2,413 nucleotides of DNA from NCBI RefSeq assembly GCF_003334255.1, contig NZ_QOWU01000134.1; one strand, 5' to 3'. The notes beneath the pieces were generated by a model. The model was given only the letters and a program-made list of their open reading frames with translations. It had not been told where the DNA came from and searched no databases. The stretch's first letter is position 1, and every line of letters starts with the position of its first letter. Below are positions 639-749 of the stretch, piece after piece. The position numbers were made by a program, and so were the translations under genes. The DNA is from Escherichia coli (GTDB taxonomy: Bacteria; Pseudomonadota; Gammaproteobacteria; Enterobacterales; Enterobacteriaceae).

Positions 639-651
639 AGATTTCTCCCAT

Positions 652-685
652 AAAAAAAAGCCCGCAGCAGTGACGCCACGGGCTT
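652..685 (-). terminator. Candidate rho-independent terminator downstream of lom, directly abutting the stf ribosome-binding site
   Basis: Minus strand reads AAGCCCG-(14 nt)-CGGGCTT followed by a T-run, from the plus-strand A8 at 652..659. The stem is 5 G/C pairs plus 2 A-U pairs. The 14-nt loop is large for an intrinsic terminator, which lowers confidence. Confidence 0.45.
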
Positions 686-749
686 CAGGACAGTGTAACT
701 TTACGTTTCCTCAAACGCAGTTCATCACATGAGGCGGATGAACCTGCGA

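Follow-up and report, generated by a model that had tools for sequence, protein, structure and literature searches.

What does a strong RNA hairpin do immediately ahead of a phage tail fibre gene? In the 2,413-nucleotide stretch of Escherichia coli DNA analysed here (the window), the spacer between the genes lom and stf ends in a hairpin and a run of uridines that abut the stf ribosome-binding site. Such an element might end the transcripts that reach it from upstream, form the 3' end of a separate small RNA, act on the messages after transcription, or mark a joint at which modules recombine. We weighed these readings against the anatomy of the element, its conservation at related loci and the layout of the operon in which it lies.

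The lom−stf junction of a lambdoid prophage

The window belongs to a lambdoid prophage, with 99.8% identity to the P-EibA prophage of E. coli ECOR-9; the complete phage PhiR5_1 (L217) matches it at 97% identity over the window. The genes lie on the minus strand in the order J, lom and stf, annotated in P-EibA as J, lom and orf-401-like:

1457..2413, minus strand: J (tail tip gene), 3' part, continuing past the right end of the window; NCBIfam lambda_TipJ, E = 4.5e-149
790..1389, minus strand: lom, encoding an Ail/Lom outer-membrane beta-barrel protein of 199 aa; P-EibA annotation, matches to the NCBIfam PRK15240 and OmpX models
1..638, minus strand: stf (side tail fibre gene, lambda orf-401-like), 5' part, ATG at 638..636, running off the left end of the window

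The stf product is 52% identical to lambda orf-401 over residues 1–129, and the Lom protein is 41% identical to lambda Lom. The collagen-like Gly-X-Y repeats of Stf begin after residue ~135 (window 1..~235, minus strand) and account for two features of the left end of the window, its GC content of 60–70% and its pronounced strand asymmetry. Two further open reading frames, 529..732 on the plus strand and 484..651 on the minus strand, were treated as spurious, being out of frame with or antisense to stf. The second of them, with 55 codons and an ATG inside UUAUGGGAG, overlaps the stf Shine-Dalgarno sequence, lacks one itself and is out of the stf frame; it is probably spurious. A 10-codon open reading frame in the lom−stf spacer was also set aside, its ATG being absent from the other variants of the spacer.

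The hairpin ahead of stf has the anatomy of a strong intrinsic terminator

The minus strand from 700 to 636 reads ...CCUGAAGCCCGUGGCGUCACUGCUGCGGGCUUUUUUUUAUGGGAGAAAUCUAUG, and the following elements were located in it:

657..686, minus strand: predicted terminator hairpin; 5' arm 686..675, loop 674..669 (GUCACU), 3' arm 668..657
652..659, minus strand: U8 tract (T8 in DNA), adjoining the stem and partly inside it; T6–T8 in relatives
645..649, minus strand: stf Shine-Dalgarno GGGAG, 2 nt past the U-run and 6 nt ahead of the ATG

A consensus scan placed a stem of 13 pairs at 686..657, with 7 G-C pairs, a 4-nt loop and a T-rich tail behind it, whereas in ViennaRNA 12 pairs enclosed a loop of 6 nt. 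The stem therefore has 12–13 pairs, including 7 G-C and 3–4 G-U, and its three basal pairs take up the first three uridines of the run. Both methods and the U8 at 659..652 bear out the hairpin and U-run that a preliminary description of this DNA had noticed before stf. Terminator-type folding of the minus strand, which that description had proposed as a check, likewise returned a stable hairpin (−20.2 kcal/mol for the isolated hairpin). The 61-nt segment that contains it folds at −23.9 kcal/mol with a z-score of −3.5 (ViennaRNA).

The string GGGAGAAATCT-ATG at the start of stf matched the preliminary description exactly; the U-run and the Shine-Dalgarno, said there to be 3 nt apart, are separated by 2 nt (A, U). 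The loop had been taken as 14 nt long, but this was a misreading, since UGGC pairs with GCUG through two G-U and two G-C pairs and leaves a loop of 4–6 nt. With the long loop, the idea of a weak or conditional terminator loses its support too: the extended stem gives a loop of normal size. The hairpin also does not follow lom directly, as had been supposed. It lies on the coding strand, co-directional with lom, and starts 103 nt past the lom stop codon (790).

The element combines the sequence features of Rho-independent terminators, namely a GC stem of ~5–14 bp, a loop of 3–8 nt, a contiguous U-tract (at least 5–6 U in 8, starting within 2 nt of the stem) and a stability above chance. Among 300 dinucleotide-preserving shuffles of the whole window, a hairpin of −19 kcal/mol or lower adjoining a T-run, at any place and on either strand, arose in 3.3%. 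A looser consensus terminator scan of the window detected no overall enrichment (4 found vs 2.5 expected). On the opposite (plus) strand, the site is not terminator-like, with only 2 T after the stem. The covariance models of Rfam 15 gave no match at E ≤ 1 anywhere in the window. Far from being atypical, the hairpin and U8 make a strong and canonical intrinsic terminator by these sequence criteria.

In the minimum-energy fold, a UCCU at 687..690 (minus strand) pairs with the GGGA of the stf Shine-Dalgarno (646..649) and thereby encloses the terminator; with 4 bp only, this pairing is probably due to chance.

Three unrelated hairpin families occupy the same position

The 171-nt lom−stf junction of the window is widespread. 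Of 5426 complete E. coli genomes, 1650 (~30%) carry it, including EDL933 and E2348/69, and it is in every case flanked by a Lom-family gene (or what remains of one) and a tail-fibre gene. For a broader comparison, we surveyed 85 loci, comprising 80 viral contigs that encode relatives of the Stf N-terminus and 5 reference loci. In 83 of the 85, the stf ATG lies 11–16 nt beyond the end of a hairpin (−11 to −24 kcal/mol) and its T-run, and the run is T5–T8 in 82 of those 83. By sequence, three families of hairpin can be told apart: type A, the one in the window (25 loci); type B, the lambda-like one (17 loci); and type C, with the sequence CCGCAGGCCGGGAAACCGG... (41 loci).

Lambda and Rac have the type-B hairpin, which also precedes stf in the Sakai prophages Sp11 and Sp12. 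These four share a 64-nt spacer with the hairpin AGCCCGCCGG...GGCGGGC followed by T6; the long type-A spacer was not located in Sakai, where Sp11 and Sp12 have the short lambda-type one. The presence of a terminator-like hairpin at the same place in lambda and Rac supports the lambda-like arrangement proposed in the preliminary description. As in the window, the lambda/Rac hairpin lies after lom in the order J-lom-stf, with 11 nt between its T-run and the stf ATG, and it has the same form: a GC stem starting from AGCCCG, then T6, GT and the Shine-Dalgarno. It differs in that the spacer is 64 nt long as against 151 nt in the window, in the sequences of the upper stem and loop, and in having U6 where the window has U8. 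The closest known element is the lambda hairpin between lom and orf-401, of which the hairpin in the window is a longer-spacer relative with a different upper stem.

The gene content ahead of the hairpin varies. We examined two type-C loci in this respect, and neither has lom. In one of them (L037), J is followed by a 46-codon open reading frame for a Hok-family toxin (1218..1358, plus strand; NCBIfam HokA, E = 1e-9), then by the hairpin and stf. In the other (L017), J is followed by 184 nt that hold no gene, then again by the hairpin and stf. The hok-like frame in the slot of lom marks the J/stf junction as a site of differing accessory cargo. The tie between hairpin and lom in the preliminary description therefore stands in part: in the window the hairpin does lie between lom and stf on the coding strand, but its equivalents precede stf behind a hok-like cassette or behind no gene at all. 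That description was right in outline, wrong on the loop and too specific in attaching the hairpin to lom.

The ribosome-binding site and the stf 5' end of L017 are identical to those of the window, yet its hairpin is of type C. Since the same stf ribosome-binding site occurs with a type-A or a type-C hairpin, the hairpin goes with the upstream cassette, and the T-run appears to be the joint. Such a mosaic joint before the stf ribosome-binding site can be placed at 652..659 in the window and at about 1480..1500 in L017; in another locus, L151, the sequence turns unrelated right after the T-run.

It might then be asked whether the hairpin and T-run are chiefly a mosaic boundary, that is, a linker for recombination between the J-proximal cassette and the stf module that is kept without any RNA function. 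The exchange of hairpin types in front of identical stf 5' ends would fit such a linker, as would the type-A hairpin, which is found joined to two different ribosome-binding sites, the break in L151, and a spacer far more conserved than the neighbouring genes. Nevertheless, three unrelated hairpin sequences all keep a GC stem and a T-run, which structural selection explains and a patch of homology does not, and a T-run of 6–8 nt is very short for homologous exchange. We regard a boundary devoid of RNA function as quite improbable.

Within type A, the stem is nearly invariant. An alignment of 10 distinct variants showed one-sided changes at four pairs (G-U/A-U) and one mismatch in one sequence, and no pair had changed on both sides; a wider scan of viral contigs added no type-A diversity. 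The type-A variants are too similar to each other for covariation, so the case for structural selection rests on the comparison between families, in their shared form and position. From the three families that keep both, we infer selection on the structure of the hairpin.

The same data bear on whether the hairpin acts mainly after transcription, either as a 3' stabiliser of upstream messages once the late transcript is processed, or as an insulator that prevents the stf ribosome-binding site from folding, with a U-run that offers ribosomes a standby or S1-binding site; either way, termination would be incidental. A role at the ribosome-binding site would fit the constant distance of 11–16 nt from T-run to ATG in the three families, the retention of the hairpin in L017 where no cargo gene precedes it, and the potential UCCU (690..687) pairing with the Shine-Dalgarno around the hairpin. 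However, a GC stem followed immediately by U6–U8 is a termination signature that neither stability nor insulation needs, and the hairpin goes with the upstream cassette, not with the stf ribosome-binding site. In addition, typical RNase III sites have stems longer than 12 bp, and the UCCU/GGGA pairing is small and has no counterpart in lambda, where no anti-Shine-Dalgarno lies directly upstream of the hairpin. A mainly post-transcriptional role is therefore unlikely in our judgement.

A probable terminator at the edge of an accessory slot in the late operon

The element is probably a Rho-independent terminator at the 3' end of the J/stf accessory ("moron") slot, which here holds lom. Four things seen directly speak for this assignment: the anatomy and predicted strength of the terminator, its position, its conservation at the same place across differing hairpins and cargo, and the co-directional layout behind a Q gene. 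The last was taken from PhiR5_1, in which the Q antiterminator gene is followed by ~28 kb of co-directional late genes that end in J-lom-stf-tfa, tfa being the tail fibre assembly gene. Our scan detected about 8 other strong, co-directional terminator-like hairpins in the intergenic spacers of this late array, one of them between J and lom:

16955, 17630, 20541, 31943, 40375, 43931, 44691 and 48802 in PhiR5_1: terminator-like hairpins, intergenic, late array

The layout is that of the lambda late operon, where unmodified polymerase stops at such terminators and Q-modified polymerase does not. Because J-lom-stf-tfa close a late array that lies downstream of Q and contains several such hairpins, the dependence of stf on antiterminated read-through, which the preliminary description had put forward, is a reasonable expectation. 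The scheme that we infer comprises termination at the locus with its efficiency, lysogenic transcription of lom, and Q-dependent read-through. A polymerase without the Q modification, whether any that transcribes lom in the lysogen or one that starts at the candidate promoter at 758..750 described below, would transcribe the GC-rich stem and U8; the hairpin would form and the RNA would be released at about 652–656. Thereby stf, tfa and the downstream genes would be silent in the prophage. After induction, Q-modified polymerase coming from the late promoter would ignore this hairpin, like the other terminators of the late operon, and enter stf.

Most likely, then, the terminator serves to end the transcripts of J-distal accessory cassettes and to keep stf-tfa silent in the prophage, which would leave antiterminated late transcription as the only source of stf expression. 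The shielding of stf from lysogenic lom transcription, also suggested in the preliminary description, cannot be the whole reason for its conservation, since L017 keeps the hairpin with no cargo gene ahead of it.

Evidence for a lysogenic lom transcript was sought in the window. A consensus scan found no sigma-70 promoter for lom on either strand, and the spacer between J and lom contains a hairpin of its own:

1413..1438, minus strand: second terminator-like hairpin, GGGCACCAGAAAUGGUGCCU (hairpin 1438..1419), 8 pairs, followed by T6; −14.5 kcal/mol; between the J stop codon and the lom Shine-Dalgarno

This second hairpin makes up most of the 67-nt J−lom spacer and leaves ~25 nt to the lom ATG; lambda has an analogous hairpin after J. 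With an empty promoter scan and a hairpin-filled spacer, the lysogenic lom transcript that the terminator would stop is hypothetical in the window. The RNA-seq signal of lom in E2348/69, which carries the same spacer type, is very low (base mean about 2) and counts against the terminator reading. In lambda, lom is among the genes reported to be expressed in lysogens (PMC7067206), while an array study did not detect it in a lambda lysogen and described its promoter as poorly known (PMC2147009). The K-12 Term-seq tables contain no entry for lomR or stfR at the homologous Rac site, and a literature search on lambda late-operon terminators downstream of J returned nothing usable. Tandem late-operon terminators downstream of J, the t'J series, were reportedly mapped in lambda by Luk and Szybalski in 1983.

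The slot itself resembles the moron cassettes described by Juhala et al. (2000) and Cumby et al. (2012, PMC3594210), in which a promoter, an accessory gene and a factor-independent terminator are inserted in a late operon. The promoter and terminator that morons bring with them allow expression from repressed prophages (PMC3594210). As in those cassettes, lom sits between conserved tail genes, relatives carry variable cargo or none, and a strong terminator lies at the downstream edge within a Q-dependent late operon. The likeness is incomplete, since the consensus scan found no promoter belonging to lom and, at 0.50–0.59 as against 0.47–0.56 for J, the GC content does not set lom apart in base composition, as it would a moron.

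By these sequence criteria, the hairpin is a real, strong and ordinary terminator, and as such largely a textbook one: it is known from lambda that accessory genes in late operons end in intrinsic terminators, and that the late genes downstream need Q antitermination. One modest step beyond this is that, irrespective of the cargo at the J/stf junction, a terminator is retained right against the stf ribosome-binding site. The T-run as the apparent joint of cassette swaps should be useful for annotating and engineering the tail-fibre regions of lambdoid phages.

A candidate promoter and a possible small RNA in the lom−stf spacer

The reading of the preliminary description needs a qualification, as a promoter-like extended −10 sits between lom and the hairpin in the window. 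Downstream of it, a second stem-loop and the terminator would delimit a short RNA:

750..758, minus strand: candidate promoter, exact extended −10 TGTTATAAT (TG 758..757, hexamer 755..750), with no −35 match
717..747, minus strand: predicted 5' stem-loop GCAGGUUCAUC...GAUGAACUGC, near the predicted transcription start (~743–745)
652..743, minus strand: hypothetical ~92-nt RNA, consisting of the 5' stem-loop, a ~30-nt spacer (GUUUGAGGAAACGUAAAGUUACACUGUCCUG, nearly invariant) and the terminator

The motif TGNTATAAT matched the window once, compared with 0.03 matches expected, and the match is on the correct strand, shortly after the stop codon of lom and ~92 nt ahead of the U-run. The start at ~743 was predicted at about 7 nt downstream of the extended −10. 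Every type-A variant keeps the TG, with T, G or C as the middle base, and only one departs from a hexamer of TATAAT or TATGAT; the 5' stem-loop shows only one-sided pair changes (U-A/U-G, A-U/G-U). The hypothetical RNA folds at −34.2 kcal/mol (z = −2.9). Between variants, its ~92-nt segment diverges by 4–6%, compared with 22–29% in the coding DNA on its flanks and 17% in the part of the spacer ahead of the −10. When the 151-nt type-A spacer is set against the 64-nt lambda-type one, the ~85 extra nucleotides are those that carry the promoter-like motif and the 5' stem-loop.

These features raise the possibility that an independent small RNA of ~92 nt is transcribed from TGTTATAAT (758..750), and that the hairpin serves also, or mainly, as its terminator and Hfq-binding 3' end. 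This would be compatible with the terminator reading. The points in its favour are the single exact extended −10 with a conserved TG and a freely varying middle base, the stem-loop at the predicted start, the conserved ~30-nt spacer and the U6–U8 tail in all variants. The conservation of the segment above that of its flanks, the spread of this spacer type through close to a third of the complete E. coli genomes (1650 of 5426), and the content of the extra ~85 nt point the same way.

Several observations speak against it. The sRNA tables and a part of the interaction table of the EPEC Hfq RIL-seq data name no RNA from this spacer, though prophage PP6 of E2348/69 carries the commonest variant. 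The spacer has no Rfam match, and its sequence is absent from the searchable text of papers. The candidate promoter has no −35 match, the consensus promoter scan of the window was empty, the commonest variant has TATGAT instead of TATAAT, and one variant is without the hexamer. The 5' stem-loop displays no compensatory changes, and elsewhere PhiR5_1 holds no complement of at least 10 nt to the conserved spacer. The high conservation could instead stem from a recombination linker. The list of EcOnc RNAs from Sakai CRAC data (Tree et al.) left out Hfq peaks within 100 bp of a CDS, and is therefore uninformative on a 151-nt spacer. On balance, a small RNA ending in the hairpin is possible but doubtful.

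For the 151-nt spacer as a whole, we put forward as no more than a tentative proposal that it may encode an unannotated ~92-nt sRNA, for which the hairpin and U8 would be both the Hfq-binding 3' module and the barrier before stf. A widespread long spacer may in this way hide an sRNA gene.

Comparison with known small RNAs

Small RNAs of the DapZ/MicL type arise in 3' UTRs from promoters of their own and share the terminator of the mRNA. The window resembles this arrangement in that a promoter-like element lies just after a stop codon and the predicted ~90-nt RNA would end at the Rho-independent terminator of the gene, with a long U tail; it differs in that the predicted RNA is absent from those parts of the EPEC RIL-seq lists that were covered. 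The known prophage sRNAs of pathogenic E. coli (PasA–D, EcOnc/AgvB/AsxR, StxS and 24B_1) lie in the spacers of lambdoid prophages and have an intrinsic terminator with a U tail, and none of them maps to the spacer of the window.

As candidates for identity with the predicted RNA, PasB of EPEC and EcOnc22–24 of EHEC were rejected in spite of a promising size (~83–85 nt) and a location among structural genes of the phage, their coordinates placing them antisense between the tail genes I and J. Pas A/C/D, the AgvB/AsxR loci and StxS map near the late promoter or the lysis genes, not in the lom−stf spacer. One of the PhiR5_1 hairpins lies in the I−J spacer, where the antisense sRNAs PasB and EcOnc22–24 map in other prophages.

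The "microRNA-size" RNA 24B_1 of phi24B, located between lom and vb_24B_43, was likewise discarded: BLAST of the window spacer gave nothing above chance, and 24B_1 is on the opposite strand. The lom−vb_24B_43 spacer of phi24B (L004, HM208303) contains an unannotated 46-codon open reading frame for a Hok-family toxin at 1285..1425 on the plus strand (NCBIfam HokA, E = 9e-10). The published 20-nt 24B_1 maps to 1193..1212 on the minus strand of this locus, antisense and 73 nt upstream of the hok-like ATG. A Sok-type antisense RNA would be expected at this position, and 24B_1 may thus be a piece of such an antitoxin RNA.
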